Shown: positions 2,853 to 43,632, counted from the stretch's first letter. The stretch is 64,000 nt of DNA from Verrucomicrobiota bacterium (GCA_023230105.1 JALNXY010000003.1:10998-74997); one strand, 5' to 3'. Numbers and translations: made by a program. The notes: generated by a model not told the origin, from the sequence alone.

Positions 2853-4424
2853 ATGGTTAGTCTTCACCAGCCTAATGAATTAGATTCTCAATTCTTTCGA
2901 TGCGCAGATGATTTCTTTCTTGATCATTCTTCACAAGCGCTCACATATGACGATGTGTCCTTAGCAACGTTGTACTCTGAGATTTTACCCAGAGATACCC
3001 AGCTGGACGCCCAACTCGCAGAGGGTATAGAACTCCATATTCCTGTCATTTCAGCGGACATGGATACGGTCACTGAGTCTCGCATGGCTATCAGCATGGC
3101 CCTGAATGGAGGCTTGGGCCTTATCCATTACAACATGACTGAAAAGGATCAACTTGCAGAAGTTTCTCGGGTTAAGAGTCATGTACACGGATTAATCCAG
3201 GATCCGGTCACTATTTCACCAGATAAATTGATTGGAGACCTGCTCCAAACGATTGAAAAAGAGAAATACACCTTTAGCACATTTCCCGTTCTGGATCAGG
3301 ATGGCAAACTGTTAGGGGTATTGCCCGCACACGTATTGAACGCACGATTCGCCAAGCTTCGAGTCATAGACGTGACTATCCCCCGCTCACATGTTTGCAC
3401 CATCTTGCAGAGCGAACTGGGCAATGACGCCATCACGGCGGCCGACGATTATTTCACAAAAAACCCCATGGAGCATAAGCTGATCGTTGTGGATAACAAC
3501 GATCGGCTTTGTGGACTCTTCACATTAAGTGACATCTTAAAAATCAATCAGGAACGGAGAGCTCAGTTTAAAGCCGCTCGCGATTCTCGTTTCCGTTTGC
3601 TTTGTGGTGCTGCCATTTCCATCATTAGGGATGCTCAGGGGAGAATGGATCGCAAGCGGATGATGTCCCACATCGCAACACTTCTGGATCGAGGTGCGGA
3701 TGTCATCGCTGTTTCCACGGCTCACGGACACACTCGCGATGTCGGTGCGGCAGTTAAAGCTATACGCGACGCATTTCCAAAATTACCCATCATTGCCGGG
3801 AATGTAACCAGCGGTGCAGGCGTAGAATTTTTGGCCGAATCTGGTGCCAATATCATCAAAGTAGGGCAAGGTCCCGGCTCTATTTGCACAACACGTGTTG
3901 TTGCCGGTGTGGGAATTCCTCAACTCACAGCCCTCTATGTGGCATCAAAAGCGGCTGAGAAAAGAAAAGTCACAATCCTGGCCGATGGTGGAATTAATAA
4001 ATCAGGGGATATCGTAAAAGCTTTGACTCTGGCTCAGGGTGTTATCTGCGGCGGTCTGCTGGCCGGATGTCACGAGGCTCCCGGCGAGATTATTGAGATT
4101 GGAGGGAAACTGTACAAACAGTATCGAGGAATGGGAAGCCTTGCGGCCATGCGAGCCGGATCCGCCAGTCGATATGGTCATCTCAAATCTGACACAACTC
4201 GAAAAATGGCGGCAGAGGGAATCGAGGCACTTAAAGAAATTGCCGGCTCTCTGGATAATGTACTCTCTCAGTTGATCGGAGGCATACAATCCGGCATGGG
4301 TTATCTGGGCGCTCAAACTCTGTCAGACCTCCGAGGGAAAGCCCGTTTTGTACAGGTCAGCCCTGCAGGGCAACGTGAGGCGGTCCCGCATGACGTGGTT
4401 GAACTCAAGACAACGGCGAAATAG
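2853..4424 (+). CDS. guaB: IMP dehydrogenase with CBS pair
   Basis: ALTYDDVSL near the N-terminus, GGLGLIHYNMT, CBS-like insert, catalytic loop GQGPGSICTTR, GGINKSGDIVKAL. I moved the start to ATG 2853 (MVSLHQ) because the 26 upstream codons of the track ORF look non-native. Confidence 0.85.
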   Translation: MVSLHQPNELDSQFFRCADDFFLDHSSQALTYDDVSLATLYSEILPRDTQLDAQLAEGIELHIPVISADMDTVTESRMAISMALNGGLGLIHYNMTEKDQLAEVSRVKSHVHGLIQDPVTISPDKLIGDLLQTIEKEKYTFSTFPVLDQDGKLLGVLPAHVLNARFAKLRVIDVTIPRSHVCTILQSELGNDAITAADDYFTKNPMEHKLIVVDNNDRLCGLFTLSDILKINQERRAQFKAARDSRFRLLCGAAISIIRDAQGRMDRKRMMSHIATLLDRGADVIAVSTAHGHTRDVGAAVKAIRDAFPKLPIIAGNVTSGAGVEFLAESGANIIKVGQGPGSICTTRVVAGVGIPQLTALYVASKAAEKRKVTILADGGINKSGDIVKALTLAQGVICGGLLAGCHEAPGEIIEIGGKLYKQYRGMGSLAAMRAGSASRYGHLKSDTTRKMAAEGIEALKEIAGSLDNVLSQLIGGIQSGMGYLGAQTLSDLRGKARFVQVSPAGQREAVPHDVVELKTTAK

Positions 4425-11549: not shown

Positions 11550-12008
11550 CCGCTTCAGTGCTCAGCTTTTCATCTCTCGCATATTTCATCGAGGCATATT
11601 TGCGTTTTTTCACGCGCTTTATTGACAAACAGGAAAAATCTGCTATCTGTTATTCAGTGTTTGTGTTTGAAGTGTAGCGTTTTTAGAACTCAGCGGCGCA
11701 ACTATCGAATATGAACGCCTTAGTATTGAGCTGTAGAGATTCTGCCTCAGAGGGAACGCTGGGTATTGGTGTTTCCCGGGCTTCGTGCCAGGCAGCCCAA
11801 GCGTTGGAAAGGGCTCTGAAACATGAGTAGGAAATGCTATTCAAAACTGGAAGTCATTCTCTTAAGTGAATGGCAGGTAGGCCATGTTTCATTCTGCACT
11901 TTTTACGTCCATTTCAATTCTCAATATTCGTTTCAATCCATTCGAAAACATAATCAACCAGGGGGAGAGGATATTAGCCTCATCTCTTAATACAGAAAAG
12001 GGAGTTTT

Positions 12009-15000
12009 ATGAACCCATCCATTACAGAAAACGTTAACAATAAGAAAAAGCTTTTTGCGTGGCTTTTTGCGCTACTTTTCCTGGGGAGTATCTCAGCCAA
12101 AGTAAATGCCCTCAACACCCTCCCGCTGGAGACGGCCAATACAGAGCCTGTAGTTGAGGCAGAACGCGCCTTGAGCGCTGAAAACCCGGTGGATATCTAC
12201 GAGATGAGGCTTTTGGCCGGTCATCTCTACCACTTTGAATCCATTGGAGCCGATGATCCCAGGGCTTTTCTCTATGATACGCAAGACTTGAGAGGTGCTC
12301 CTGTGGTTTTCGATGATGATTCCGGAGAAAACCTGAACTTCAAGTTTTCCTACATTCCCGAAATCGGCGGTACTTATTACCTAAAAGTGGAGATGTTTAA
12401 CGGCTACACCAATTTGGTCTACAGTCTACAGCATTTCGTAGCGGCCAATGATCCCTGGGAGCCGGCCGATAATGAGCTTCAGTCGGCAACGATTTTGCTG
12501 CCGGGAGAAGACCTTCAAACACACGGAGTCCACTTTCTGCATCCTGCCGATGTACGTGATCTATTCTGCGTTACGATGAAGGCAGGAACCCGTTACACCG
12601 TAGAATCGGATAGCCAGGGCCATGTTCAGGCTGCGCTCTATCAGTTTAATCAGGAAGGAGTGCTTGAGCTTTTGACATTGAGCCAAAGTCAATATGGTGA
12701 AGACAACACGCAGCTTGAGAATTTCAAGCTGGTCTATCAACCGGTTCAGGATGGTAACTATTACCTGGAAGTGACCCCTCTTTACAGGGATGGCAGCGCC
12801 GTTTATACCCTGAGTTACATAGCTCAGAGTGTGAATGAACTCGGTAACGACACCCCGGAGACCGCGTTGGAGCTGCTGCCCACAACCCAAAGGCAAGCCA
12901 TCAATCCTCGCATACTCAATGATACCTACCCGAGGGATTACTTCAGGGTCTACATGAAGGCCGGAGCAACCTACACATTTGAATCGCTGGTGAAGTCTCA
13001 GCTCATGGCCCGGATTTATGCCCTTGGCGATTGGCAGACACCGCTGGCGAGCGACTCCAATTTTACGCTTCATTTCCGGCCGCCGGTGGATGGATATTAT
13101 ATTCTCCTCGTAGAGCGAGCCTTCCCGAAGCTGGTGGAAGATGCCGACTATACGCTTCTATACCTTTACGAGCCTGAGGATGTTCTCGGTTACAACGAGA
13201 GCGCTGAAACCGCAACGCCCTTGAACAATTTTGGGCAGGAGCCCCTTGAGGTTGGCCCCTATACATTGGGTTCCAGTAATCCCAAAGATGTTTTTGCGAT
13301 CTATTTGCCGATCGGTTTCAGCAATTTTGAGGTATCTGCAAATGGAGATATTTCGGCTCTGCTCTATGATTCAAGCGATCTGCAAACAGCGCTGGGCAAT
13401 CCAAGCCATATTCTGAACAGTTACACCTTGGGGCTAAATTATCGTGTTCACCGTGAGGGTACCTACTATCTGGTGGTGAAGAAGATGAACCCGGATGCCA
13501 CACCCACTTACAGCATTTCCCATTGGAGTACAACGACAAATGAATGGCGTGACCCACAGGATATAAATGAGGCTGTAACTCTTCTGGATATCACTACAGA
13601 AACGCAATATTTTGGTCCCAGAAAGCTTGGCGGTGCTAATACACAGGATGTCTACAAATTCTATCTGGAAGCAGGTGTTCGCTACTGGTTTGACTGCGAT
13701 AAAACTAGTTATTACTTGGATTCTTATCTCTATGACAATCCGAACATAGTCAGCGGCCATGTTGCGAGTTCGTCGTATTGCGACATCGCTTATATTCCCA
13801 GCCAGAGCGGTGTTTATTACCTGAAGGTGACAAACTCTAACAGCACTTACACGCTCAAGTATTCACGTCAGGGTTGGGACCCGTGGGACCCGATTGATAA
13901 CACGGCTGAAGGAGCGACTTTGTTGGTTCCGACCACTGAGGAGCAGAAGCATGGCCCCCATACGCTCAACGCTTCAGATACGCAGGATGTCTACAAATTC
14001 TATCTGGAAGCAGGTGTTCGCTACTGGTTTGACTGTGATAAAACTAGTTATTACTTGAATTCTTATCTCTATGACAATCCGAACATAGCCAGCGGAGAAG
14101 TTGCGGTTTCGTGGTATTGCGACTTCACTTATATTCCCAACCAGAGCGGTGTTTATTACCTAAAGGTGACAAACTCTAACAGCACTTACACGCTCAAGTA
14201 TTCACGTCAGGGTTGGGACCCGTGGGACCCGATTGATAACACGGCTGAAGGAGCGACTTTGTTGGTTCCGACCACTGAGGAGCAACAGCACGGCTCCCAC
14301 ACGCTCAACGCTTCGGATACGCAGGATGTCTTTAAATTCTATCTGGAAGCGGGTATTCAATACTGGTTTGACTGTGATAAAACTAGTTATTACTTGGATT
14401 CTTATCTCTATGACAATCCGAACATAGTCAGCGGCCATGTTGCGAATTCGTCGTATTGCGACATCGCTTATATTCCCAGCCAGAGCGGTGTTTATTACCT
14501 GAAGGTGACAAACTCTAACAGCACTTACACGCTCAAGTATTCACGTCAGGGTTGGGACCCGTGGGACCCAATCGATAACACGGCAGAAGGAGCGACTTTG
14601 CTGGTTCCGACCACTGAGGAGCAACAGCACGGCTCCCACACGCTCAATGCTTCGGATACGCAGGATGTCTTCAAATTCTATCTGGAAGCAGGTGTGCGCT
14701 ACTGGTTCGGTTGTACTAAAAATAGTTATTACCTGTATTCTCATCTCTATGACAACCCGAGTCTGAGCGGTGACCATGTTGCCTTTGCGTGGTATGGCGA
14801 CTTCACATATACCCCCAGCCAAAGCGGTGTCTATTATCTGAAGGTGAGCAATGGCGATACTTACACGCTCAAGTATTCGCGTCAGGGTTGGGACCCGTGG
14901 GATCCACTCGATAACACGGCTGAAGGAGCTACCCTGCTTATCCCCACCACTGAGGAACAGCAGCATGGATCTCATACGCTTAATGCTTCAGATACGCAAG

Positions 15001-18000
15001 ATGTCTTCAAATTCTATCTGGAAACAGGTGTGCGCTACTGGTTCGGTTGTACTAAAAATAGTTATTACCTGTATTCTCATCTCTACGACAACCCGAGTCT
15101 GAGCGGTGAACATGTTGCCTTTGCGTGGTATGGTGACTTCACTTATACCCCCAGCCAAAGCGGTGTCTATTATCTGAAGGTGAGCAATGGCGATACTTAC
15201 ACGCTCAGGTGGAATGGCGGTTTGGGGGATCGTTCACCGTCACCCTTAGGGATACAAGCGACTCTGGAAGAGCAAAGTGCCATTACCGTGAGTTGGGAGG
15301 CATTGCCTGATCTCTACTACCAGGTATATCGAAGCATTCACGAAAAAGGAACAAAGGAACTGGTCAGTAATTGGATACAGAGTAATCTTTACGCAGATGA
15401 CTCTGCCTCCTTTGAAACCCGATACTACTATTGGGTTCGCTCTGCAATAGATCCTGAGGGTGGAAACGCAGGTAATTTCAGTCTTTTTGCCGAAGGTTTC
15501 CGTCCGGCAACCTTCGCGCCGCATTTCCTGCAAGAACCCGAAGCCCAGGTCTCCTATGAAGGTCAGAGGGTCGTTTTCCGTGCTGAAGTGATTGAGTATC
15601 CCGCTTACACCTACAGCTGGCAATGGTTTAAAAACGGAGTGGAAATTGAAGGAGCGACCGAATCCCGGCTGGTTTTGGAGGGAGTTACGCTCATTGATGC
15701 AGGCAATTACTCCGTCAGTGCAAGCAACGAGATGGGCACCACTCTTTCAGCTCAGGCGCCGCTGACCCTAGTAGCAGTTCCGGCGACGATCTACGTTAAT
15801 GCCCTGGATCAACACTATTTCCTGGACCTGCCCCCCCCGGTTTTGACGTGGATCGCTCGGGATTCTCAGGGTAATGATGTGACGGAGCGCATCATTGGTA
15901 AGCCGCTCCTGCAAATCCCCAAAGAAGCCTATAACACCCCGGGGAATTACCAGATCGGCATAGAAGCGGGCACACTGAGCGGCGCCAACTTTATTTTGGC
16001 TGGTGCATGCTGGGTTACCGAAAAACCACTCTTTACCCTAAGCGCCCAGAATGCAGTCCGTGTATTGAGTGTTGAAAACCCGGCTTTCGCCTATTCTGCG
16101 GTGGATCGCTCGGGGCGTGATGTCAGTGCCGAACTCGAAGGAGAGCCATCAATCCTCTGCGATGCAAACCTTCTGAGTCCTGCGGGCGAATACCCGATTC
16201 ATATCTGGACTGGCACGCTAAGTAGTGAGAAGGTCGACTACAAATTTGAGGCCGGGGTGCTCAGTGTTATTGATACGGAAGATGCCCCGGTGATTCTGGA
16301 GCAGCCTGCCGACAGCTTCCCGATTGTGGGGCTACCCTTCAGCCTGAATGTTGTTGCCGAAGGCGCCTTCCGCTATCAATGGTTTAAAGATGGCGAGCCG
16401 ATTACAGGCGCAATTGCTGCAACATTGCAATTCAATGCAGCATACAAAGAGCAGAGCGGAGTCTACACGGTGGCCGCGATCGGTTACGGCCAAACAATAA
16501 GCCGTGAAGCCCGTGTTCTGGTGACTGACGCACCTGAAGGGGAACTGGGTATCCCATCTGGCAGTCTGTATGACTTCCCGGTTTTTGGCATGTGCCTCAA
16601 CGGTGATTATGCTTATCTGGCCTGCGGAACCAATGGTCTGCGAATAGTGAACGTGGCTGATCCGGCCAATGTTTTCGAGGTGGGTGTCTACATTCATGAG
16701 TTTGAACCTGAAGAAGGCGAAGATGGTGAACCGATTGAGCCTCCGCCGCCGATTGAGTTCTATGATGTGGATGTCGTTGGATTCATCGCCTGTACTGCGA
16801 CAGGTAGTACCGGTTTAATGGTGCTGGATGTCTCCAACCCGGCTGAACCGACGTTGCTGGCCTGGGATGCCGGGGAAACAACCTATCAGGTTCGGTTGAG
16901 CAACGCGATTGAAACCGAGACTCAGGCTGATATCTACGCTTATAGCATCGTAGACAGCACTTCAAGCCTCAGGGTGAGAAGAATCAGAGTCGATGATAAT
17001 ACCGGTGTCACACTTACTTACATTCGCAGTGTGGGAACTGGGACTCGTGCAAATGATATCTACCTGAGAGAGGGACGGCTCTATCTGTCGCGGCCCGATG
17101 GAACTCTATTGGTATACGACATCAGCACTACGCCCGATAACCCCAAACAGATTAATAACGTTTGGCTTTCCCGAGAGATGTTGGCAGTTTATGCCACTGA
17201 CCACTATCTCTTTGCGGCCTGCGGCAATGATGGCGTGAAAATATATCTCTTCCGAAATAATGGAAGTCTCAAGCTGGTGAGCCAGGCATTGACACCGGGC
17301 TTTGCGGAGCTCTTGAGCGGCTATGGGAACAACCTCTACGTGGGTGATTCCTACGGAGGCTTGCAAGTCATCAGCCTTCTGAATCCCGCAGCCCCGAGGC
17401 TGGTCGGCAACTACCCCAACCTTGTAGGAATACAGGATATCAAGGTGGATAATGGAGTCGTTTTCACTACGGGTGAAAACGGTTTCAAACCGTGCGATAA
17501 AACTATCCAGACCGATACCATTCTGGTTCGCGCATTGGATGAGGGCAAAGCTTTCGGAGTTGATAACCCCGAATGGCGTTACCTGATCACTGATGGTGTC
17601 GGCAACGACCTGTCCGATTACATTGTGGGCGATCCGCTCATCAGCTCTACCGCAACGGTGGACAGTCCTCCGGGGCAATACCCCATTTTGATCTCCGCCG
17701 GCAGTCTCTATTCACCCGACTATCAGCTCACATTCCAAAATGCCACCCTGACAGTCTTTGATATGGACGCCATCTCATACAACCTGATTGTTCCTGAATC
17801 AGTAGGGCGCCATGCTCTGGCCACACTCTATGTGGAGTATGAAAATACAGGCACCTTGCCGATTACCTCCCCGGTGCTGGTTGTTTATGGTTCAGAAAAA
17901 GCGCTCATGACACTGGATGCATCCATCGTGACGGCCGGTTTCTGGACCTCAAGCAAGCCTCAGGGCTTTAACGACACCATTGAGATATTGGCCAGCGGAC

Positions 18001-21000
18001 AAACTCCGGGCGTATTAATGCCGGGAGAAAAAGGCAGAGTACCAGTCTATTATGCGGGTCTTCTTCAGCCCTGGAGCTGGGAACCCAAAGTAGACTTCTA
18101 CATTACGGTCATGGCCAGTAAAGATACTTACCCCATGAATTACGATGCACTCTATCAGACGCTGAATTTTGGCACTGAAGACCCTGAGGCGATCAGCGTC
18201 CTATGGAACAACTTCAAACAAATGGTAGGGCCGACCCGTGGGGATTACGTGAGCATGCTCAGCCGCAATGCTCAGGCCCTTTATGCAATGGGTGTTACGG
18301 AAAACAGCGTTCATCGTTTGCTTGAGTATGAGTTCCTGAAAGACGCCGGTTTCTCGGTAGTATCAAGCCTGGCTTCGAGCGTAGATATACAGGTGCAGGC
18401 CCCTGCAACGTCTTTACGCTTCAACCGGGTTTTCTATCATGGACTTCTGCCCAGTTACAGACTCAATCTGGAAGCACCGGGTTGCAGCGCGCTGGGAAGA
18501 GGCTGGGATCATAACTGGAATTACCGCCTGGTGCAGATAAAGAAGAATGAACCAATTATTGTTCGCACGCCCGGCGGTGCAGAGCGTGTCTTCCAACCCG
18601 ATAGCCGCTACAGTAACCGTTATTTCTCCTCCCCGGGTGATTATGGCGTACTGACAGCCCGCTGGGATGGTGAGGCTCTGCAGGATTGCACACTTGTGGA
18701 AGCCAATGGCAACACGTTTAAGTTTGACTCTTCAGGGCTTCTTATTCAGATGTTGGCTCCCGGCGGCAAAGCAGGTGTGACACTCACCTACACCGAAGGA
18801 TGTCTGGTGAAGCTTACGCACTCTGCGGGCCAAACACTGAGCTTGAGCCGTGGCGGCGGCAAGTACAACGCAATTACGTCCATTGCCGATCAGGATGGCC
18901 GCTCGGTGAGCTACACCTATACAGCCGATGGCGAGCAGATAGAATCATTCACCGACGAAAATGGGCTTGTCACCTCCTACAGCTACAGCCGAGGCAATAA
19001 AGCCAACTACTATATGCTCAAATCCGTCCTCCATAGGGATGCCACACAATCTAACTATACGTATGATGGTATGGGACGCATTGTGAGCTTCACACAGGCT
19101 GATGGGGCTCTGCCCTTGACTTTCAGCTATGAGAATAACGGCTTGATCCATCAGACCGATGCATTGGGAGTAAATATGTCGTTCCGGTTCAACGTAGATG
19201 GAATGATCACTGAAGTCGGAAATACCGATGGCACAACACTAAATAACGAGTATGACTCACAGAAAAATCTGATCCGGTATAGCGATCGTCAGGGGAACAT
19301 CTTCAAGTTCACCCACAAAAACGGACACGTTACCCGGGCTGATCTGCCAAATTCTCTCTGGACTCAGTACACTTGGGATGGAGGCTTATTGAAGAGCTTT
19401 ACCAATCCGAAGGGTGCCGTTACGCGGTTTGATTACGATCAGGGGATGCTCTCGGGCATTCGCTATGCAGATGGCACAGTCCAGCGCAATGAGTTTGATG
19501 CGCAGGGCAACGTTAAAAAGGTGACTAGCCGCCGTGGTGCCTCTGTTGAGTTTGTGAGTGATGAAGACGGCCGCGTGTTGACCAAGCTCTATGAAAATGG
19601 CGAACGCGTGGAATACACCTACAGTGCAGATGGTAGAATGGCAACTGCCGCCTCCTTTGACGCTGAAGGCAAAACCAAAGAAACGATTCAACTGGGATTC
19701 AATGAAAAGAAACTCCTGACCAGTATTGAACACGCCAATGGCCGTAAGATCACGTACACCTACAATGAGCGCGGTTATCGTCAAACTATGAGTGCGGATG
19801 AGCGTACCGTGAGCTACACCTATGATAATCTGGGCCGCTTGGCCCAAGTTCTGGAAGGAGAGACTGTTCTTGTCTCTTACACCTATGATGCTGCGGGTAA
19901 GCCTACCGGCACTCAGATGGGCAATGGCGACCAGATAATCAATACTTACAATAGCGAGGGCAATGTGAGCAGTGTTATCTCTTACAATGCTGCCGGTACA
20001 ATGACCTCTCAAATCCAGTACACCTGGGATAAGGGATTGATGCAGACCCAAACGCTCAATGAAGGTCAATGGAGCTATGAATATGATGTCATGGGGCAGC
20101 TGGTACGTGCGGAGTTTTACTCTTACACTCCGGAAATCCAAAGTTACACGTTGGAATACTCGTACGATGGAATGGGTAATCGTACTCAATCGCGCGTCAT
20201 TCAGGGCGAGACCGCCCATTTGACGGACTATGCGGCCGATAACATGAACCGTTATACGTCCATCAATGGAGCCGCGCTGAGCTATGACCAGGATGGAAAC
20301 ATGACCGGACGCGACCAGTGGGTTTACGAGTATGACGACGAGAACAGACTCTTGAGCGCCTCCAATAGCTCGACCCATTATCAATATGAGTACAGCATAT
20401 TGGGCTATCGCTCAGCCGTGACACTGAACGGAGTTCGCACTGAGTATCTGGTGGATCCAGTGGGGCTTGGCTCGGTAATTTCCGAGTATGTTGGAGGATC
20501 CCTGACGCCCAATGTTCAGTATACCCAAGGCTTGCAGTTGGTGAATAAAATCTCCGGTGACCAAAGCTGGTGGTATCACTACGACGGAATTGGCTCAACC
20601 CTGAACGTTACCGATAATGATGGACTTCTGGTTAACCACTACCTCTATGAGCCGTTTGGGGCTGTTGCCTGGGCTCTGGAGACCATCCCGAATCCCTTCC
20701 GGTTCGTGGGGGCAAATGGCGTAATGGATGATGGCAACGGAATTCATTACATGCGCGCCCGTTATTATTCTGCAAACTTGGGACGATTCTTCTCTGAAGA
20801 CCCGTTGGGCATGAGCTCTGGCGATCCAAACTTGTACAACTACGCCATGAATAATCCGCTGATGCAGATTGATCCTTCAGGCGAAGTTGTACCGCTGGTG
20901 ATATTGGCTTGGGGTGCTGTGGGTGCTGTTGTGGGTGGAACAACCTACGTCATCACGACAGGTATCACAGGTGAAACCAGAACCTTCGGCAAGTTTGCGG

Positions 21001-31852: not shown

Positions 31853-32869
31853 ATGAAGAGCGTATCGTCTGGGATGTTTCCATTTTACCGCCCTCGCAGG
31901 CTTAGGCGTACTCCTGCCCTAATATCTACATTTAAGCAAACCTCCTTAAGGAAAGAGCAGTTAGTTTTGCCTTTTTTTGTTACAGAGGGTACTCAAAAAC
32001 GAACCCCCGTTAACTCCATGCCCGGAGTACACCAACTTTCCATCGACGAGCTATTGACTGAAACCTCTGCAGCTGTAAAAACCGGTGTACAAAGTATCCT
32101 CCTCTTTGGCATTCCCTCAAAAAAAGACGAACTGGCATCTGAAGCTTATGCAGCTAACGGGATAACACAAAAAGCGGTACGAGCTCTTAAAAAAGAATTT
32201 CCGGATATCATAATCATGACCGATGTTTGCCTTTGTGAGTACACAAGCCATGGTCATTGCGGAGTAATTAAGAAGGATAAACAGGGACAATTTGTCGTTG
32301 ATAACGATGAGTCTTTGGAGTTTTTGGCAAAAACGGCTGTAAGTCATGCAGATGCCGGAGCTGACGTGGTCGCTCCAAGTGACATGATGGATGGTCGGGT
32401 CAAAGCAATTCGCACCGAACTGGATAAGGCCGGTTTCAATCAGACGATCATTATGTCCTATGCAGCAAAATATGCTTCCGCTTTTTATGGCCCCTTCCGC
32501 GAAGCAGCAGAGTCTGCACCTAAGTTTGGCAATCGCCGAGCTTACCAGATGGAGAGTGCCAATACGGATGAAGCACTGCGAGAAGTCGCCATGGATATTG
32601 AAGAAGGCGCAGATATCGTGATGGTCAAACCGGGCTTAGCCTATCTGGATATACTCCATCAAGTTAAAAGAACATTTCGTTATCCAACGGCCGTTTACAT
32701 GGTCAGTGGAGAGTATGCTATGATCAAGGCGGCAGCCGAAAAAGGCTGGATAAATGAAGAACAAATTATGATGGAGTCACACCTTTCAATGGCGCGAGCT
32801 GGAGCAGATATTATTATCAGTTATGCCGCTAAGGAAATTTGCAACAGCTTAAATAAAAATATGCAATAA
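31853..32869 (+). CDS. hemB: porphobilinogen synthase (Zn-type)
   Basis: FYRPRRLRRTPAL, cysteine-rich Zn site DVCLCEYTSHGHCG, Schiff-base region MVKPG, SGEYAM. Confidence 0.9.
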   Translation: MKSVSSGMFPFYRPRRLRRTPALISTFKQTSLRKEQLVLPFFVTEGTQKRTPVNSMPGVHQLSIDELLTETSAAVKTGVQSILLFGIPSKKDELASEAYAANGITQKAVRALKKEFPDIIIMTDVCLCEYTSHGHCGVIKKDKQGQFVVDNDESLEFLAKTAVSHADAGADVVAPSDMMDGRVKAIRTELDKAGFNQTIIMSYAAKYASAFYGPFREAAESAPKFGNRRAYQMESANTDEALREVAMDIEEGADIVMVKPGLAYLDILHQVKRTFRYPTAVYMVSGEYAMIKAAAEKGWINEEQIMMESHLSMARAGADIIISYAAKEICNSLNKNMQ

Positions 32870-32888
32870 ATTTTAAGAAGAATTTAAT

Positions 32889-35243
32889 ATGATAAAAAAT
32901 TGGAAAACAAAAATTCTTGGATACTCCGGTGTGTTGATTCTAGCAATCTTCTGCACGACGGTATCTGTCACTTCACAAAATAATGTGCCTACCTTGCCTG
33001 GGGAAGGCGGAACTCAAAAAGCAATTGAGTTGGATTATTTTCCGGACCGCCTCCATGCATTCATATTCAAAAACTGGCCCCTGGTACATGCAGAGCGATT
33101 GGCAAAAGTACTGGAAACAAAAACTGAAAACGTTGTTCAAATCGCTGAATCAATGGGGCTGCCACCGCAAGACCCTAAAAAAATACTTCCCGCATGGAGC
33201 TCAAACCGAGGATATATCACCGTGCTGCGGCGCAATTGGCACCTATTACCTTATGATCAACTCTTGACCTTATTAGATATCGACCGGCAAGAACTTCAAT
33301 TCCGCCTGATAGAAGATGACTTTCTCTATGTCAAATTGGGTAATTTGAAGCCGAGCTGTGAAAAATTGACTTATGCAGAACCTTCCCCGGAAACAAAAGC
33401 TCAAGCCAAAAGAATTTCTGAAATACTCCAGCAGGAACTGAAGGAGGGTTCTGCTACTGTTGACGAAGAGCGTTTTGAATTTATTAATCGTTTGAAAGAT
33501 GTTTCTCCGGATATCTCCACTCCGGATACAACCGACGATTCTGAGTTTGAGCTGCGATACATTTCATCCTACTTTGCCTCTTTTGGAGAACCACTGCTGG
33601 ATCCGGAAATCGAGTCCTGCCCTGAAGGCCTGCTGCAGCGTTTGTCTGCTACAGGTGTTAATGGGGTTTGGATCCACACTGTACTGAGAACATTGGCTCC
33701 GCCTACTGAGGATTTCCCCGAATTTGGACAAGACCATGAACGGAGAATCCAAGGGCTTAATAAACTCGTACAACGCGCAAAGAAGTACGGTATCGGTATT
33801 TATCTTTACTCAAATGAACCACGCGCGCTGCCAGTGGAATTCTTTAATAAACCGGGACGTGAAAATATGAAGGGTGTCACAGAAGGACACGTTGCGACTA
33901 TGTGCTCTTCGGACCCAAGGGTGCGTAAGTGGCTTACAGAGTCTTATGAGTATCTATTCAAAAACGTTCCTGATTTGGCCGGAGTCTTCACCATTACGGG
34001 CTCCGAAAACCTCACCACTTGCGCTTCACATTACCAACACAAAAATTGCGCTCGTTGCTCAAGTAAAGATTTTGCAGAGATCACGACAGATATCAATACT
34101 CTCATAGCCGAAGGCGTCCATCGTGGCAACCCCAAAGCAAAAACAATTGTCTGGGATTGGGGATGGCAGGATCAGTTTGCTGAAAAAATTATCAAAAATC
34201 TCCCCAAAAATTGCTGGTTTCAATCAGTAAGCGAGTGGAGTCTCCCTATTAGCAGAGGTGGAGTCTCCTCAGCAGTGGGAGAGTACTCTCTTTCCGCCGT
34301 GGGGCCTGGACCACGCGCGCAAAAACATTGGCAATACGCCCAAGAAGCAGGACTTAAAACCGTGGCAAAGGTGCAAGTGAACGCAACATGGGAATTCGCC
34401 TCTATACCTCAAATTCCTGTCTTGAATCTTGCTGCTCAGCATGCCTCCAATCTCTCCAAACAAAAAATCAATGGGCTTATGTTGAGCTGGAGTTTAGGTG
34501 GTTATCCTTCAATAAACCTCTCCCTTTTTCGAGATGTAGGAACCGGTAAAATGAGCACCGAGGAATGTTTAAAGAATGTTGCCGTGAGTAATTATGGTGA
34601 AGCTGCCAGCGATACCGTGTTGGAAGCTTGGAAACTTTTTTCTGATGGTTTCTCTCAATATCCTTACAGTGGAGGGACTATCTATTTCGGACCACAGCAC
34701 GTTGGACCAGCCAATCCCCTTTATTTAAAACCCACTAGCTACAGAGCTAGCATGGTAGGTTTTCCGTATGACGATTTAACGGGATGGTGTTCCATTTACC
34801 CACCAAATGTTTGGATTCAACAGATGGAACTGGTCCGCAATGGTTTTTCAAAAGGGTGTAATAAGTTTGAAGAAGCTATCGCCCTTATGCCTCTGAAAAA
34901 ACAAACCGAGGCTCGAATGCAATTAGGACAATACCGTGCTGCGGAAATGCACTTTGCTTCCTGTGTAAACCAAGCCCGTTTTACAGATGCACGTAACTCC
35001 TTTAACCGGCTTCCTGAAGATGCCTTGATTGGTGAGAAGAAAGCTCTATTGGCGATAATGGAGAACTCTGTGGAAAATGAACTCATTGTTGCCAAAAAAA
35101 TCTATACCCTGGTTAAGTCTGATTCTGCCATTGGATATGAATCCTCCAACCATTATTTTTATATACCTCAAGACATTATGGAAAAAATCGTCAATTGTAA
35201 ATATCTACTATCAAAAATTTTAATAATTAAAAATAGTATTTAA
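32889..35243 (+). CDS. secreted or anchored hypothetical protein, possibly glycoside-hydrolase-like
   Basis: N-terminal signal or anchor (ILGYSGVLILAIFCTTVSV). Central segment GVNGVWIHTVLR...KYGIGIYLYSNEPRA resembles TIM-barrel glycosidase-like proteins. No family recognised with certainty. Confidence 0.3.
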   Translation: MIKNWKTKILGYSGVLILAIFCTTVSVTSQNNVPTLPGEGGTQKAIELDYFPDRLHAFIFKNWPLVHAERLAKVLETKTENVVQIAESMGLPPQDPKKILPAWSSNRGYITVLRRNWHLLPYDQLLTLLDIDRQELQFRLIEDDFLYVKLGNLKPSCEKLTYAEPSPETKAQAKRISEILQQELKEGSATVDEERFEFINRLKDVSPDISTPDTTDDSEFELRYISSYFASFGEPLLDPEIESCPEGLLQRLSATGVNGVWIHTVLRTLAPPTEDFPEFGQDHERRIQGLNKLVQRAKKYGIGIYLYSNEPRALPVEFFNKPGRENMKGVTEGHVATMCSSDPRVRKWLTESYEYLFKNVPDLAGVFTITGSENLTTCASHYQHKNCARCSSKDFAEITTDINTLIAEGVHRGNPKAKTIVWDWGWQDQFAEKIIKNLPKNCWFQSVSEWSLPISRGGVSSAVGEYSLSAVGPGPRAQKHWQYAQEAGLKTVAKVQVNATWEFASIPQIPVLNLAAQHASNLSKQKINGLMLSWSLGGYPSINLSLFRDVGTGKMSTEECLKNVAVSNYGEAASDTVLEAWKLFSDGFSQYPYSGGTIYFGPQHVGPANPLYLKPTSYRASMVGFPYDDLTGWCSIYPPNVWIQQMELVRNGFSKGCNKFEEAIALMPLKKQTEARMQLGQYRAAEMHFASCVNQARFTDARNSFNRLPEDALIGEKKALLAIMENSVENELIVAKKIYTLVKSDSAIGYESSNHYFYIPQDIMEKIVNCKYLLSKILIIKNSI

Positions 35244-35245
35244 AA

Positions 35246-36094
35246 ATGATTTTAGGTGCACATATGTCCACCGCTGGTGGGCTGGAACAGGCAATCCGAC
35301 GCGGAGCAGATGTTGGGTGCGATTGCATTCAGATATTTGTTAAAAACAATATGCAGTGGTTCGGCAAACCATACACCCCGGCAGAACTCTCCGCTTGGAA
35401 TCAGGAAGTCGCTTCTGGAAAGATGCAGATCATTTTTGGGCATACAGGCTATCTGATCAATTTAGGAGGGCCCGAGGGTGAGAACCGTAAAAAATCTGTA
35501 GACTCTCTGAAGCAGGAAATTGAATTGTCCACCCAACTAGGACTCCCATTCTTAGTAATGCATCCGGGGGCTCACCTCAAACAAGGTGAAGAAATAGGGA
35601 TTCAACAAGTCATTTCCGGTCTGAATGAGGTTTTTAGTGAAACGGTTTCACCCACCCGAATTGCGTTAGAGGTCACTGCCGGTCAGGGAACATGTCTGGG
35701 AGCAAAGATGGAACACTTAGCGGCCATTTTTGATGGGGTCAAACAGCCCGAGCGCCTCGGAGTTTGTCTGGATACCGCACATCTCTTTGCAGCCGGATTT
35801 GATATTCGCACTCCGGAAGGCTGGGATATGGTTCTCACTAATCTCGACTCATTGATAGGCCTGTCCAACCTTCTGGGAATACACATGAACGACTCCAAAG
35901 TGGACTTGGGGTCGCACGTGGATCGACATGACCATATTGGCAAAGGTAAAATTGGCGTAGAGCCTTTTCGGCACATAGTGAATGACTCGCGATTAGAGCG
36001 CCTTCCCGGTTCCTTGGAAACGCCCAAGTCCAAAGATTGTCATGAGGATCGGGAAAATCTGCAGTTACTGAGAGAACTCATAAAACAAGGTTAA
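35246..36094 (+). CDS. nfo: endonuclease IV
   Basis: MILGAHMSTAGG, VMHPG, CLDTAH, HMNDSK, DRHDHIG. Confidence 0.85.
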   Translation: MILGAHMSTAGGLEQAIRRGADVGCDCIQIFVKNNMQWFGKPYTPAELSAWNQEVASGKMQIIFGHTGYLINLGGPEGENRKKSVDSLKQEIELSTQLGLPFLVMHPGAHLKQGEEIGIQQVISGLNEVFSETVSPTRIALEVTAGQGTCLGAKMEHLAAIFDGVKQPERLGVCLDTAHLFAAGFDIRTPEGWDMVLTNLDSLIGLSNLLGIHMNDSKVDLGSHVDRHDHIGKGKIGVEPFRHIVNDSRLERLPGSLETPKSKDCHEDRENLQLLRELIKQG

Positions 36095-36098
36095 TATT

Positions 36099-36941
36099 TT
36101 GATCTTTAAAGGTAAAAATTTTGAATTTATTTTTCCTCGTCCTACTTTGATAATGGGGATATTAAATGTTACTCCAGACTCATTTTCAGACGGAGGTTCT
36201 TTTTTCGATACAGATAAAGCAATTCAGAGAGCGCTATTGATGGAGAGTGAAGGTGCTGAAATTATCGACGTGGGGGCCGAATCTACTCGACCGGGCTTTA
36301 AAGAAGTAACTCCTGAAGAAGAATGGGGCCGGCTTTGCCCAATAATTACGGAGCTAAAAAGGCAAATAAAAATCCCTCTCTCAGTCGACACACGCCATGT
36401 CGAAGTCGCTCAATTAGCGTTGAAAGCGGATGCTGATATTATTAACGATGTCGGATTGATGCGCCCAGAGGAAAAAATGTTCCGACTGATGGCTGAGTCC
36501 GGAGCCGGTTACATCATGATGCATTCATCCCCCATTCCACCTGAAAACCGGGCTCCACAAGAAATTGTCAGCTCTTATTTTGGTAAGACATTATCCCGCT
36601 GCGAAAAAGTGGGTATGAACTCCCACCAAATAGTTCTGGATCCGGGAATTGGTTTCGGAAAAACGGTTGGGCAAAATTTATTGTTGATTAGAAGTCTCAA
36701 TCACTATACAAAGTGGCAGAGACCCGTATTGCTGGGAGCTTCTCGAAAATCTTTTATTCGAGGTTTTCCCGGTGGAGCCCTGACTCCGAAAGACCGACTG
36801 GGTGGAAGTTTGGCCGCCGCTTGTTTTGCAGTGAGTTTGGGGGTTCACATTCTGCGAGTGCATAATGTGAAGGAAACTTTGCAAGCCATACGTCTAACTG
36901 AATGGTTAGAGGGTAAAAATGAACTGGAGCCCAATCTATAG
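36099..36941 (+). CDS. folP: dihydropteroate synthase
   Basis: GILNVTPDSFSDGG, IIDVGAESTRPG, SVDT, DPGIGFGKT, GASRKSF. TTG start. Confidence 0.9.
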   Translation: MIFKGKNFEFIFPRPTLIMGILNVTPDSFSDGGSFFDTDKAIQRALLMESEGAEIIDVGAESTRPGFKEVTPEEEWGRLCPIITELKRQIKIPLSVDTRHVEVAQLALKADADIINDVGLMRPEEKMFRLMAESGAGYIMMHSSPIPPENRAPQEIVSSYFGKTLSRCEKVGMNSHQIVLDPGIGFGKTVGQNLLLIRSLNHYTKWQRPVLLGASRKSFIRGFPGGALTPKDRLGGSLAAACFAVSLGVHILRVHNVKETLQAIRLTEWLEGKNELEPNL

Positions 36942-37770
36942 CGATATTATTAAAACCATAACAGAGGTAACTATCCTGACAGTTGCCATCTATTATGTTT
37001 TGAAATTTATTAAAGGCATTCGCGGGGCAGCTGTTGTTACAGGCTTTTTCACAGCGTTAATCATCGTTGCATTTTTAGCCATTGTTCTGCACCTCCAAGT
37101 CCTTACTTGGATATTAAGCTGGTTTGTCGGTTTTTTTGCGATATCCGTGCTTGTACTCTTTCAATCCGAAATCAGACGGATGATTTCAGAAATTGGCTCA
37201 AACAGAGTGATTGTTTCCGCGAGGGAGCAACGTGAAAATATAGAGGTCATCATCCAGGGAGCCAAACGACTGGCGGAAGAGCGCTATGGGGGATTAATAG
37301 CTGTCGAGCAAGGGATTAACTTGTCTGAGATAACAGAAGGAGGCATCGTTGTAGATTGTGAAGCCACTCCGGAAATGCTTGAAACAATCTTCTATCCCAA
37401 TAACGCTATTCACGATGGCGGGGTATTGATGAAGGGCGATCGAATCGCTAAAGCAGCATGTGTTTTTCCACTTTCTCTTCGGCAAGATTTAAGCCATTCC
37501 ACCGGGATGCGCCACCGTGCAGGATTGGGGCTTTCTGAAGAAACGGATGCCGTTGTCATTATTGTATCGGAGGAGACCGGATATATCAGCTACGCATATA
37601 AGGGAAAGCTTCACCGAAATGTATCGGAAGAAGATCTTCGGGCATTTTTAAGCCTCATATTTCTGCCTAAGAAACCAAAGCCCAAACGAACCAGCAAGTG
37701 GAGTCGTTTGCTGATTCGCTTAAAAATTCAGCGCTTGTTCCAAAAAAGAAAGGGGACGGCAAATACGTGA
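36919..37770 (+). CDS. cdaA: diadenylate cyclase CdaA (c-di-AMP synthase)
   Basis: Three N-terminal transmembrane segments, then a DAC domain with HDGGVL and TGMRHRAGLGLSEETDAVVIIVSEETG. Overlaps folP by 23 nt. Confidence 0.9.
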   Translation: MNWSPIYSDIIKTITEVTILTVAIYYVLKFIKGIRGAAVVTGFFTALIIVAFLAIVLHLQVLTWILSWFVGFFAISVLVLFQSEIRRMISEIGSNRVIVSAREQRENIEVIIQGAKRLAEERYGGLIAVEQGINLSEITEGGIVVDCEATPEMLETIFYPNNAIHDGGVLMKGDRIAKAACVFPLSLRQDLSHSTGMRHRAGLGLSEETDAVVIIVSEETGYISYAYKGKLHRNVSEEDLRAFLSLIFLPKKPKPKRTSKWSRLLIRLKIQRLFQKRKGTANT

Positions 37771-38363
37771 TGAAAAATTTTCTTTTCAACAATTTGCTGA
37801 TGAAAATATTCGCTCTGGTTTTGGCTTTGATAGTATGGTCAGCCGTCCGAATGCAAATCAGCAAAGGGGCCCAGACCTGGAGCTCACGCATGATTACAAC
37901 CACCACTTTCACACAAATACCGATCAATATCATGCAAGTGCCTTCAGACAATAATAGCTATGAGCTCATCCCCCCCTCCGCTACTGTTAGTATTTCCGGC
38001 TCAAGACTCAATGTAAATGCCACCAAACCGGATATGATTACTCTTTTTGTTACCGTTACCCCCGAAGAAGCAGAAGAAGCTCCCCTGACTCAAAACACAA
38101 ATAAAGGGGTAATGAATAAAAAAATTCAGGCTAAAATACCCACCGACGTCACTCTGGGGACCATTGAACCTTCTACTGTCAGGCTCATCACTAAAAGGGT
38201 AGTGAAAACTAACGGCATCTCCGGTAATAATCTTTTACCTGATTCCAGCACGGCATTTTCTCAGGAAGGCTCAGTAGATACTAAAAATGATTCTGATCGT
38301 ACCGAGCTTGAGACTGCTACACGCCCTCCCCTCAATACTAGCCCGGCAAATATTGAAAAATAA
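37770..38363 (+). CDS. cdaR: CdaR/YbbR-like regulator of CdaA
   Basis: The ATG overlaps the cdaA stop (GTGATG). N-terminal anchor LLMKIFALVLALIVWSAV, then YbbR-like beta modules. The classic position is directly after cdaA. Confidence 0.6.
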   Translation: MKNFLFNNLLMKIFALVLALIVWSAVRMQISKGAQTWSSRMITTTTFTQIPINIMQVPSDNNSYELIPPSATVSISGSRLNVNATKPDMITLFVTVTPEEAEEAPLTQNTNKGVMNKKIQAKIPTDVTLGTIEPSTVRLITKRVVKTNGISGNNLLPDSSTAFSQEGSVDTKNDSDRTELETATRPPLNTSPANIEK

Positions 38364-38680
38364 TCGCTCAACTCTTCTTTCACTACCTTACCAATATTTC
38401 CTCCGAAAACAACCTTTAGAAACTGCATTACGGGGTATTGTTTTCCCGAAAGGGAAATTATGGGCAGCCTGACTATAGGCGGATGTTAAACCTCAATTAT
38501 TGCGAATGAACTTCAATCATAAATTCTGGAAAACGCCTTGCCTTTTACTTCCAAATGTGGCTATCCTTACCGCGGACGTGGGTGGACTGAGCAAACGAAC
38601 TGCCGAAGATGCTGATGCCATTTTTTGATTGTATACAGCAGTGCGGTAACAAGCAGTCTCACGGTTAATAGACGCATAAC

Positions 38681-41020: not shown

Positions 41021-41077
41021 AAAGCTGTCTTAAAGTGGCCTTCCTGTTTGCATGGAGGCAGATAAATAGCTTAGATC

Positions 41078-41110
41078 AAGAGGCCGGTTGAATCCGGCCT
41101 CTTATTTTTA
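41078..41110 (+). terminator. rho-independent terminator after the S8 protease gene
   Basis: AAGAGGCCGG-TTGAAT-CCGGCCTCTT followed by ATTTTT. Confidence 0.75.
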
Positions 41111-41121
41111 AGCAAAACAGT

Positions 41122-41150
41122 TTGACTCATCGGTGTTTTTTGTGCATAGT
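41122..41150 (+). promoter_or_regulatory. candidate sigma70 promoter for the FHA-fprA unit
   Basis: TTGACT, a 17-nt spacer, then CATAGT, ending about 22 nt before ATG 41173. Confidence 0.3.
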
Positions 41151-41172
41151 CACAGCCAGTTGCGTTATTGTT

Positions 41173-41640
41173 ATGCCTAAACTGATCGTTTTAACTGAAG
41201 GTTTCAAAGGAAAGACTTGTGAGCTTAAAGAGGGAGTCACAACCGTGGGTCGTGCTGATGACAACACCTTTTGTATACCGGAGGATTCAGTTTCAGGGCA
41301 CCACTGTGAAGTCATTCTCAAAGGTAACGAGGTCATTATTAAGGATTTAAACTCCACCAATGGTACCTATATTAATGACGATAGAGTTACTGAGGCGCCT
41401 CTTAAAGCAGGGGTAGTTTTGAGACTGGGCCAATGTGAACTAAAGCTTGATGATGGTACTTCTTTTAAGAAGGTAATAGAATCTCATCGTGGTGGGGTTA
41501 AGTTGGATGAGGTCGGAGCTGGTAATGTTTCTGCCAATCCTGCATTTAAGAAAAAGGATAACAAGCTGAACCTTTACATGCTGGGCGGCGGGGCTACTGT
41601 GGTTGTTCTAATTCTGGTCTATTTACTCTTTGTTAAGTAA
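41173..41640 (+). CDS. FHA-domain protein with C-terminal transmembrane anchor
   Basis: TVGRADDNTFCIPEDSVSGHHCEV...IKDLNSTNGTYINDDRV. C-terminal anchor LYMLGGGATVVVLILVYLLFV. Start moved to ATG 41173. Confidence 0.8.
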   Translation: MPKLIVLTEGFKGKTCELKEGVTTVGRADDNTFCIPEDSVSGHHCEVILKGNEVIIKDLNSTNGTYINDDRVTEAPLKAGVVLRLGQCELKLDDGTSFKKVIESHRGGVKLDEVGAGNVSANPAFKKKDNKLNLYMLGGGATVVVLILVYLLFVK

Positions 41641-41663
41641 TTTCATTATATTTTTAATGTTTT

Positions 41664-42854: not shown

Positions 42855-42975
42855 CTTTGCCTACCGTTTGGATTTTTAATATTCAAACATCTGCTATTTT
42901 TCCTTTTGTGAAATGGATGGTTTACAAATATTCTGCGAACATGCGATTAAAAAACTTACTGTTCGAACGTAGGAA

Positions 42976-43608
42976 ATGATACAAATATTTTTCAACAATG
43001 CAGGCCCAGTAACATGGCTAATTTTCATTCTTGGGGCGCTGGGAGCAGTGATTTTTGTTGAGAGACTTTTGCACTATCATAGAGTGCAGATCGACTCCAA
43101 AGAGTTTATAACCGGAGTGAAAAATGTTCTTCGTCGAGAAAATCGGATGGAGGCACTTTCTATCTGCGATGCCACACCTGGCCCGGTTGCCCGCCTGGTG
43201 AAGATGGCAATCCTCAATCAGGATCAAGGAAGCCAATACGTGGACGATACACTCGAATCAGCAGGCCTGGCAGAAGTCCCTCGTTTGGAAGCACGGCTAA
43301 CTTGGTTGGCTACAATTTGTGAAATCGCTCAGCCTCTCGGCTGTTTAGGTACCATTCTGGGACTTATTAAAGTCTTCCGAGTCCTACAAATTAATGGGCC
43401 TTTTGCTGACGTATCTATGTTCAGTGGTGGTGTTTGGCAGGCCCTTATCGCAGCGGCAATGGGGCTTGCACTTTCCATAATCGCCAGAGCAGCCTATAAT
43501 TATCTGGTCGAGAGAATGAACAGTATCGTGCTGGATATGGAAAAAACGGCTACTGATATCACTCGATTTCTTTTTGAATCCACAATCCATAAGATATCCA
43601 ACGAATAG
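42976..43608 (+). CDS. exbB: MotA/TolQ/ExbB-family proton channel
   Basis: Three transmembrane segments and the typical GLxGT motif (LGCLGTILGLIKVF), 210 aa. Confidence 0.8.
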   Translation: MIQIFFNNAGPVTWLIFILGALGAVIFVERLLHYHRVQIDSKEFITGVKNVLRRENRMEALSICDATPGPVARLVKMAILNQDQGSQYVDDTLESAGLAEVPRLEARLTWLATICEIAQPLGCLGTILGLIKVFRVLQINGPFADVSMFSGGVWQALIAAAMGLALSIIARAAYNYLVERMNSIVLDMEKTATDITRFLFESTIHKISNE

Positions 43609-43632
43609 CTTCCGTTTTCGGGCTGAAGAGGA

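Follow-up and report, generated by a model that had tools for sequence, protein, structure and literature searches.

A giant Rhs-shell protein from Verrucomicrobiota with a hypervariable slot and a conserved DUF7619 module after its core

Is a giant bacterial protein with an Rhs shell in the middle of its chain a cell-contact protein, comparable to the metazoan teneurins, or a cage for a toxin, and what is the long chain that follows the shell? The question is raised by an open reading frame (ORF) in a 64,000-nucleotide stretch of a Verrucomicrobiota genome (GCA_023230105.1, JALNXY010000003.1:10998-74997), to which we refer as a whole as the window. An original prediction, made without database searches, had described its product as a Sec-exported protein with a teneurin-like module order, a surface or contact protein rather than a canonical T6SS or Tc toxin. 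The product, MCK9314865.1, is annotated by NCBI as "hypothetical protein" and comes from a Verrucomicrobiota metagenome-assembled genome (MAG), on a 174-kb contig. On balance, we lean towards reading it as a surface-exposed polymorphic-toxin cage, in which a membrane-active peptide would be tethered to an external, conserved beta-sandwich stalk. Sec-exported teneurin-like Rhs toxins (TLPs; PMC13018210) and signal-peptide Rhs toxins (PMC3482391) are already known; what appears to be new is the region after the core, namely a hypervariable slot followed by a conserved module of DUF7619 and FN3. In the limited set of literature that we searched, neither this subfamily with its layout nor any conserved module behind an Rhs cargo turned up.

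Shell, slot and post-cargo module

The ORF is real and no chimera, because full-length copies are present in two independent assemblies: an independent JGI assembly (P0227, 298,910-bp contig) encodes 3618 amino acids (aa) with an equal repeat count and 92% identity from end to end, and a Limisphaerales MAG (2.74-Mb contig) carries an orthologue of 3634 aa at 76% identity. The whole ORF and its features from the shell region to the C-terminus are given below; for AlphaFold2 (AF2) models, the score is the predicted local distance difference test (pLDDT).

12009..22862, + strand: whole ORF, uninterrupted; 3617 aa, 399.5 kDa, pI 4.5
17751..18368, + strand: beta-sandwich (aa 1915-2040) and four-helix segment (aa 2040-2120); AF2 pLDDT mostly 80-95
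18378..18593, + strand: DUF6531, candidate N-terminal plug (aa 2124-2195); Pfam 24.9 bits against a cut-off of 24.1
18594..20645, + strand: YD/RHS-repeat shell wall (aa 2196-2879); RHS_repeat E 2.4e-33; continuous beta-hairpins in AF2, pLDDT ~90-96
20646..20885, + strand: Rhs-associated core, aspartyl autoprotease (aa 2880-2959); TIGR03696 at aa 2880-2958, E 1e-20
20886..21413, + strand: cargo slot (aa 2960-3135), 176 aa, 17.1 kDa, rich in Gly, Ala, Thr and Val
21414..22298, + strand: conserved post-cargo module (aa 3136-3430), DUF7619 (E 1.4e-15) and FN3 (fn3 E 6e-5)
22347..22595, + strand: DUF11 (CLIPPER)/CARDB-type beta-sandwich (aa 3447-3529); Pfam DUF11 E 1e-10, TIGR01451 E 2e-6
22611..22859, + strand: C-terminal beta-sandwich of ~80 aa, ending ...NRFYRVSKQ; six strands in AF2, pLDDT 60-78

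The AF2 model of aa 1915-3114, computed from a 40-sequence alignment (pLDDT 82; predicted template modelling score 0.78), is confident for aa 1915-2961, where pLDDT is mostly 85-96 and around 90, and runs in order from the beta-sandwich through the four helices and the DUF6531 region into unbroken beta-hairpins that reach the core. The RHS_repeat and TIGR03696 matches (the latter at 74 bits against a cut-off of 32.5) agree with the model, by which the protein carries the complete mid-protein Rhs/YD shell that the original prediction had claimed. The conserved family core begins at the beta-sandwich and four-helix segment, which has no Pfam family in aa 1915-2120; no solved homologue was found by sequence for aa 1915-2290. 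This segment had been called a CARDB-like/helical module: the four helices, after a beta-sandwich, are seen in the confident model, but the CARDB label lacks Pfam support. For the plug region (aa 2120-2200) the evidence consists of the DUF6531 score and a modelled beta region, and its equivalence to the FN-plug of TLPs is only a candidate. Within the core, R2918, D2931 and D2955 are all present, with the motif PLMQIDPSGE. Autocleavage between E2959 and V2960 is predicted because the R(-13)/D/D(+24) spacing is that of R2103/D2116/D2140, the proven catalytic residues of BiTLP (spacing comparison with PMC13018210).

When the modelled shell was compared with the PDB using Foldseek, the best match was a type VI secretion (T6SS) Rhs cage (8qjd_B, E 5.6e-52 over 1071 columns), and RhsA, Tse5, Tse15 and RhsP were also among the T6SS cages matched. 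The bacterial teneurin-like 9ifo followed at E 1.7e-42, teneurins at about 1e-40 to 1e-37 and TcB-TcC at 2.8e-34. These matches have low TM-scores (0.2-0.4) and large root-mean-square deviations, so they are ranked by E-value only and allow no fine phylogenetic conclusion from the fold. By sequence, RhsP, Tse5 and Tse15 matched the shell at E 1e-29 to 1e-22 and BiTLP at E 1.6e-20, the latter over the C-terminal third of the shell only, and no teneurin was found at E<0.001. The best E-values belong to T6SS-type cages, and as modelled the shell is like these cages at least as much as it is like teneurins.

Searching with aa 2880-3617 gave 200 relatives, of which 120 were listed. In 45 of the 120 listed, an Rhs core ending in DPxG is followed by a non-alignable stretch of 72-174 aa, a boundary of the form S/V-DPN-x-K-x-GP and about 300 conserved residues, which correspond to aa 3130-3430 here. 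The peptide GFLPPEDGT, which belongs to the conserved part, was found in 209 genomes (one genome per GTDB species), and the best 80 loci of these form the set for our locus counts. In 65 of the 80, one ORF holds both parts, the Rhs core standing 63-178 aa ahead of the module; these ORFs span ~500 to 5,500 aa, the longest complete ones exceeding 3,000 aa. A phmmer search with the module only, against 1.84 billion representatives, gave 1,910 clusters at E<=1e-30. The full module was present in 120 of 129 new top representatives, with an upstream Rhs core in 85 of the 120; where at least 350 aa preceded the full module (89 representatives), a core was found in 76. We estimate that roughly 85-90% of the ~1,900 module clusters are linked to Rhs.

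Detection per region with phmmer across the 80 loci gave the beta-sandwich in 50, the helical bundle in 40, DUF6531 in 44, the shell in 64, the Rhs core in 62 and the module in all 80. The array of PPC, Ig, MBG and LVIVD domains, this protein's slot and its last domain were confined to two close orthologues, and DUF11 was detected in those two and two more. The core of the subfamily runs from a beta-sandwich and a helical bundle through DUF6531 as candidate plug, the YD shell and the Rhs core with its autoprotease to the hypervariable slot and DUF7619+FN3; what varies around it are adhesin arrays before and Ig-like, dockerin or anchor domains after the module. Its members come mostly from Planctomycetota and Verrucomicrobiota, and also from Lentisphaeria, Desulfobacterota, Accumulibacter, Rubrivivax and Kuenenia. 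Experiments are made possible by its cultured members, Singulisphaera sp. Ch08, Zavarzinella formosa DSM 19928 and Syntrophorhabdus aromaticivorans UI.

Some loci depart from this pattern. In seven more of the 80 (L038, L039, L044, L049, L064, L067 and L077) the shell and core stand just upstream of the module but in another frame or ORF, and the interruption falls within the slot; sequencing errors, gene decay or a genuine two-gene form could explain this. One candidate for a free-standing module gene, P0014, was discarded, its locus being a fragmented Rhs gene in a long-read MAG without evidence of a two-gene arrangement. The same core-slot-module layout occurs in two archaeal MAGs, of Methanoregulaceae (L019) and Thermoplasmatota (L081), the second of which ends in a transmembrane helix and a basic tail; horizontal transfer or binning contamination could account for both.

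Gly makes up 20% and Ala 14% of this protein's slot, whose tail is rich in Ser, Thr, Gly and Asn. It holds hydrophobic helices at aa 2958-2983 and 2996-3018, and only three hydrophobic stretches exist in the whole protein, the other being aa 14-35 in the signal peptide. AF2 left the slot unmodelled, with scores of 20-36 at aa 2962-3114; encapsulated Rhs cargos are largely disordered in cryo-electron microscopy (PMC10684867). Among orthologues the slot keeps 72-96 identical residues per 100-aa window and is therefore no free-drifting spacer. Across the family, 96 slots fell into 80 unrelated BLAST clusters. A hydrophobic stretch resembling a transmembrane segment was present in 11 of 47 slots, others being rich in Cys or Pro, and a Pfam scan of 37 slots gave one match to the toxin domain Tlde1 (E 3.6e-8), one to a toxin domain like phospholipase A2 (E 3.9e-8) and a weak one to LRAT, the two toxin domains being in slots of relatives. 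Slot length, taken as the gap from core to module in the module-only search set, is 53-192 aa with a median of 131 aa (~14 kDa), in agreement with the ~15-16-kDa cargos of solved Rhs and TLP cages and with a capacity limit of ~15 kDa for their cavities. In these comparisons the slot behaves like a hypervariable cargo position.

After the core match come 658 further residues, as had been noted originally, and DUF7619, fn3 and DUF11/CARDB are now recognized in them by Pfam. The module has 42 invariant columns, among them FEN..ATAPAQ and GFLPPEDGTGRG, and its DUF7619 holds an insert of about 70 aa with the GFLPPEDGTG motif, which in this protein reads GFLPPEDGTGLG. An AF2 model of aa 3115-3617 is all-beta in the module (pLDDT >90) and poor in the DUF11 region; with Foldseek it matched only generic tandem Ig, FN3 and pilin folds (E >= 1.6e-5) and no enzyme or sorting domain, and by sequence the C-terminal part has no solved homologue. 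We considered whether the DUF7619 module itself could be the toxin and rejected this, as it is all-beta, highly conserved, non-terminal and without a catalytic match. DUF7619 has been predicted to be an intramolecular isopeptide domain (PMC12617251). K3140, D3181 and N3294 map by profile position to the isopeptide triad of L7WFS8 (PMC12617251), the Asn being invariant among relatives and the Lys present in the majority only; they form a candidate triad.

Following the slot are 482 residues, ~300 of them conserved family-wide. The complete post-core chain of 69.9 kDa would occupy ~84,500 Å^3, about twice any known cage cavity. Because solved Rhs and TLP cages enclose 32,000-44,000 Å^3 (PMC10684867; PMC13018210), we infer from this volume estimate that most of the chain would lie outside the shell. 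The FN3 part of the module is repeated in L077, P0358, P0360 and P0361, with up to 17 matched stretches, and stalk length is therefore variable in the family. The final domain has no Pfam family. A beta-sandwich of ~80 aa ending in (R/K)FYR(V/L)xxx closes about 20 of the 80 relatives, mostly from Verrucomicrobiota (L005, L010, L017, L024, L025, L030, L036, L038, L046, L051, L053, L056, L063, L066, L068 and others), and is a candidate sorting or anchoring domain. It was also considered as a type IX secretion C-terminal domain and rejected for want of a Por_Secre_tail match. Other relatives end in dockerin-like repeats or transmembrane anchors.

Comparison with known cage proteins

Among the closest published systems are the Sec-exported TLPs described in Nature Communications in February 2026, which combine adhesin N-termini, an invariant FN-plug/NHL/YD superfold, an enclosed cargo of ~15 kDa and downstream immunity genes (PMC13018210). 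They were reported in six phyla, Planctomycetota and Verrucomicrobiota not among them, and 96% of them have a TIP domain (PMC13018210). Our protein shares with TLPs such as BiTLP (9ifo) the Sec signal, variable N-terminal adhesion domains, a beta-propeller, a candidate plug, the YD shell, the DPxG aspartyl autoprotease, a polymorphic cargo of about 15 kDa and the lack of a dedicated injection machine; the BiTLP cargo is, moreover, small, hydrophobic and membrane-disrupting. It is nevertheless not a TLP. The TLP propeller is of the NHL type and stands between FN-plug and shell, whereas here there is no NHL match and a lineage-specific LVIVD propeller stands before the plug, separated from it by an MBG domain, the beta-sandwich and the helical bundle. 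The TLP cargo is C-terminal and fully enclosed, while here the cargo position is followed by the 482 residues after the slot. A downstream immunity gene accompanies nearly all TLPs, and no conserved gene of this kind was seen here.

The proposed teneurin-like module order is only partly right and not specifically that of teneurins, which share with TLPs the invariant succession of FN-plug, NHL propeller and shell. The LVIVD propeller lies upstream of the plug and is present only in two close orthologues (L002/L003), 78 of the 80 related loci being without it in the phmmer comparison, and it therefore does not belong to a superfold of the teneurin kind. Among Rhs proteins at a greater distance, P0266, P0314, P0318, P0324 and P0336 have no DUF7619, and their Pfam lists contain NHL, lactonase and Kelch propellers; the pairing of a propeller with an Rhs shell therefore recurs, and propellers are interchangeable. 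Metazoan teneurins (6fb3) resemble the protein in their mid-protein YD shell, propeller, plug (here a candidate) and large domains C-terminal to the shell, which in both would have to lie outside it. They differ in that they lack the autoprotease motif, whose residues are intact here, and in being type II membrane proteins with EGF repeats, ABD and Tox-GHH, for none of which we obtained a Pfam match.

T6SS Rhs effectors provide the best shell matches by both fold and sequence. In Tse5 of P. aeruginosa (8cp6) the shell chaperones an integral-membrane, pore-forming cargo of ~16 kDa, and a C-terminal aspartyl protease cleaves the chain (PMC10684867). Unlike these effectors, our protein has a Sec signal, no PAAR or VgrG-binding N-terminus, three times the size and a conserved, presumably external module after the cargo. 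A Pfam scan of 40 window ORFs found none of the VgrG, PAAR, TcA, TcB or two-partner-secretion (TPS) families, as the original prediction had stated, and no Hcp; Pfam and NCBIfam searches of the protein itself gave no PAAR, VgrG, TcA or TcB features. Nor did any T6SS, Tc or TPS family recur beside relatives, in a Pfam census that covered 149 ORFs flanking 42 of their loci. The TcB-TcC cocoon (4o9x) shares the Rhs cocoon, a beta-propeller and an autoproteolysed caged cargo, which in Tc exits through a gate. The TcB propeller, however, forms an insertion in the wall of its shell and docks to TcA, no SpvB, TcA or TcB domains or genes were found here, and its Foldseek match is the weaker one.

Signal peptide, RHS repeats, core and variable toxin are also found in the Sec-dependent Rhs/WapA-type toxins ("T2SS" in Zhang et al. 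2012, PMC3482391), a signal-peptide class that was reported in Planctomycetes and Verrucomicrobia (PMC3482391). There the toxin is the C-terminal end, whereas here it would be internal, and a search of that paper by text terms found no post-toxin module. More generally, the protein has the complete RHS/YD shell and the core with R/D/D and PxxxxDPxG of the Rhs cage class, but the variable toxin at the extreme C-terminus is absent, the variable region being internal (aa 2960-3135). That the toxin is the extreme C-terminus and fully enclosed is hence no universal rule for Rhs proteins. The layout resembles teneurins in a feature that BiTLP is missing, C-terminal domains outside the shell, and it extends Sec-exported cage proteins beyond the six TLP phyla, to Planctomycetota and Verrucomicrobiota.

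A proposed tethered cargo and the readings that compete with it

In the reading that we favor, with a confidence only slightly above even, the Rhs core would cut the chain after DPSGE2959. The 17-kDa hydrophobic, Gly/Ala-rich slot would be kept caged and soluble in the shell, as are Tse5-CT (PMC10684867) and the 92-aa C-terminal domain (CTD) of BiTLP (PMC13018210), both experimentally established as caged, hydrophobic, membrane-active peptides, and it would act as a membrane-inserting, pore-forming cargo. The chain would then thread out of the shell, so that the 53-kDa C-terminal beta-sandwich stalk, probably isopeptide-stabilized, stands outside and tethers the cargo, either as an anchor on the producer's surface or as a handle that pulls the cargo out on contact with a target. 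Target binding would fall to the N-terminal array of nine PPC units, Ig, MBG and LVIVD propeller.

This reading should be approached cautiously, as several observations weigh against it. The residue after DPxG is Glu here, while Leu is usual (31 of 47 relatives), which makes the efficiency of cleavage uncertain. Pfam matched no toxin family in this protein's slot, and the only relative of the slot outside the full-length orthologues is a 134-aa fragment of 74% identity, probably an orthologue fragment; this negative is itself weak, since matches in comparable searches reached only ~1.7x the query length, and if that is a limit of the search, large proteins with this slot would not appear. No immunity-like gene is conserved at the locus. 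Closure of the shell and an exit route from it are presumed, and the BiTLP shell has no opening (PMC13018210). In a diderm host the protein would also have to cross the outer membrane. A clear signal peptide was seen in only about a third of relatives, although the heuristic behind this, positive in 13 of 31 complete ORFs, is too crude to interpret.

In the main rival reading, the protein would serve in adhesion or cell contact without being toxic, its shell a structural hub as in metazoan teneurins and its slot a linker, or a hydrophobic anchor that holds the C-terminal fragment in the producer's own membrane. The lack of a conserved immunity gene and the low-complexity slot without a toxin family fit this account, as do some 2,000 aa of adhesin-type domains N-terminal to the shell, stalk-type domains at the C-terminus with a predicted isopeptide domain of the kind typical of fibrillar adhesins, and housekeeping genes as neighbours. 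We nonetheless judge it clearly the less likely of the two: the protein has intact autoprotease residues, which metazoan teneurins lack, Tlde1 and phospholipase A2 domains sit in relatives' slots, slot sizes follow cage capacity, slots are hypervariable across species yet conserved within a lineage, and Tse5-CT and the BiTLP CTD are precedents for a caged hydrophobic toxin. The proposal of a contact protein rather than a toxin is accordingly not the better one, because relatives carry recognized toxin domains right after the core. Dependence on an injection system with genes in another part of the genome, be it a T6SS, a Tc (ABC) complex or a further type, would suit a shell closest in fold and sequence to T6SS Rhs cages, in a genome viewed through 64 kb; against it speak the N-terminal Sec signal, the lack of PAAR, VgrG, SpvB or TcB domains, a size of 400 kDa with ~2,000 aa of beta-sandwich arrays, and the negative scan of the window and of the 149 ORFs beside 42 relatives, and we regard it as very improbable. 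Hardly credible at all is an assembly chimera or fusion artefact that joined an Rhs gene to an unrelated DUF7619 gene. The MAG origin, a 339-bp tandem array inside the ORF and the seven relatives with the Rhs part and the module in different frames could invite the suspicion, but the same full-length protein was assembled twice independently, and the identical junction architecture recurs in 65 of 80 genomes, cultured strains included.

The reading of a tethered, caged toxin has a more specific form, which we hold tentatively and consider rather doubtful: the chain would truly leave a closed cage, a covalent tether would join the caged toxin to the isopeptide-stabilized external stalk, and force or binding at the stalk would extract the cargo, or the cargo would be the plug by which the autocleaved cage is held on the cell. 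If the chain does leave the cage, cage toxins would have a release and anchoring mechanism that is new, and the external C-terminal domains of metazoan teneurins would have a precedent among prokaryotes. Surface-protein export and anchoring in Planctomycetota and Verrucomicrobiota are poorly understood. Cargo release without an injection machine is explicitly described as unresolved for WapA-like proteins and for the 2026 TLPs (PMC13018210), and a family of ~1,900 clusters with a conserved module directly after the cargo offers a concrete handle on that question.

N-terminal array and genomic neighborhood

The part of the protein before the shell consists of an export signal and a series of beta-rich domains:

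12009..12110, + strand: Sec-type signal peptide (aa 1-34), KKK / LFAWLFALLFLGSI / SAKVNA, without a lipobox Cys; judged by inspection
12132..15218, + strand: nine PPC-like beta-sandwich units (aa 42-1070), from a hidden Markov model (HMM) built on the protein's own units
15519..15743, + strand: Ig_3 / I-set domain (aa 1171-1245), E 1e-10 / 5e-9
16035..16247, + strand: MBG_2 domain (aa 1343-1413), Pfam
16521..17513, + strand: LVIVD-repeat beta-propeller (~aa 1505-1835); Pfam LVIVD E 1.3e-19 in 3 stretches
17526..17753, + strand: MBG_2 domain (aa 1840-1915), E 3e-9

Most of the original description of this part was borne out. The signal peptide is there by inspection, with its hydrophobic stretch, and an HMM from five N-terminal units recovered all nine PPC-like units at E<1e-7, while Pfam's own PPC profile scores weakly (27.8 bits for aa 401-800, with a cut-off of 25.9; 25.4 and 17.2 bits for the two remaining N-terminal segments). 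From the list of Ig, MBG and LVIVD domains, the first Ig, two MBG_2 domains and the LVIVD repeats were identified by Pfam, the last within aa 1481-1840 and with 6-7 blades when counted by eye; the first MBG-like unit (aa 1255-1341) was not detected, and the second Ig (aa 1430-1506) remained below threshold (I-set E 0.008). An FN3-like module proposed at aa 1070-1171 received no Pfam match and is left unsupported. The last five PPC-like units form the 339-bp tandem array at 13639-15183 (4.6 copies, 90% matches in Tandem Repeats Finder). Between orthologues these tandem units are the least conserved part of the protein, at 70-84% identity per 100 aa, compared with 91-100% elsewhere, the last 17 residues excepted; for what is presumably a binding array, this suggests rapid evolution or recombination.

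Upstream of the gene lie IMPDH, AlaRS, two cyclophilins, TsaB and alanine racemase, and downstream a GDSL lipase, LysR, aspartate kinase and LysA, with carbohydrate-active enzymes, ExbBD and an S8 protease with leucine-rich repeats beyond. The GDSL lipase, the next gene, starts 110 nt downstream and is absent next to the Limisphaerales orthologue L003. Of 60 relatives' loci, 28 have an ORF on the same strand within 130 nt downstream. No homology connects these ORFs with one another, which is compatible with immunity genes, and clustering of the relatives' downstream ORFs gave no conserved accessory gene. The commonest families in the flanking census were RHS fragments, ECF sigma factors and HlyD. 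Promoter and terminator scans around the gene were uninformative. The giant gene has a G+C content of 49-52% (window positions 12001-22000) against 44-47% in the flanking 2-kb windows, which could stem from its Gly/Ala-rich composition or from horizontal acquisition.

Two further large ORFs of the window are without a Pfam match, one at 32889-35243 (+, 784 aa; threshold E<=1e-3) and one at 46911-49559 (-, 882 aa; threshold 1e-4). The ORF at 38681-41020 (+) encodes a Peptidase_S8 subtilase that has a prodomain like that of fervidolysin and is fused to leucine-rich repeats of the BspA type, another likely surface or secreted protein.

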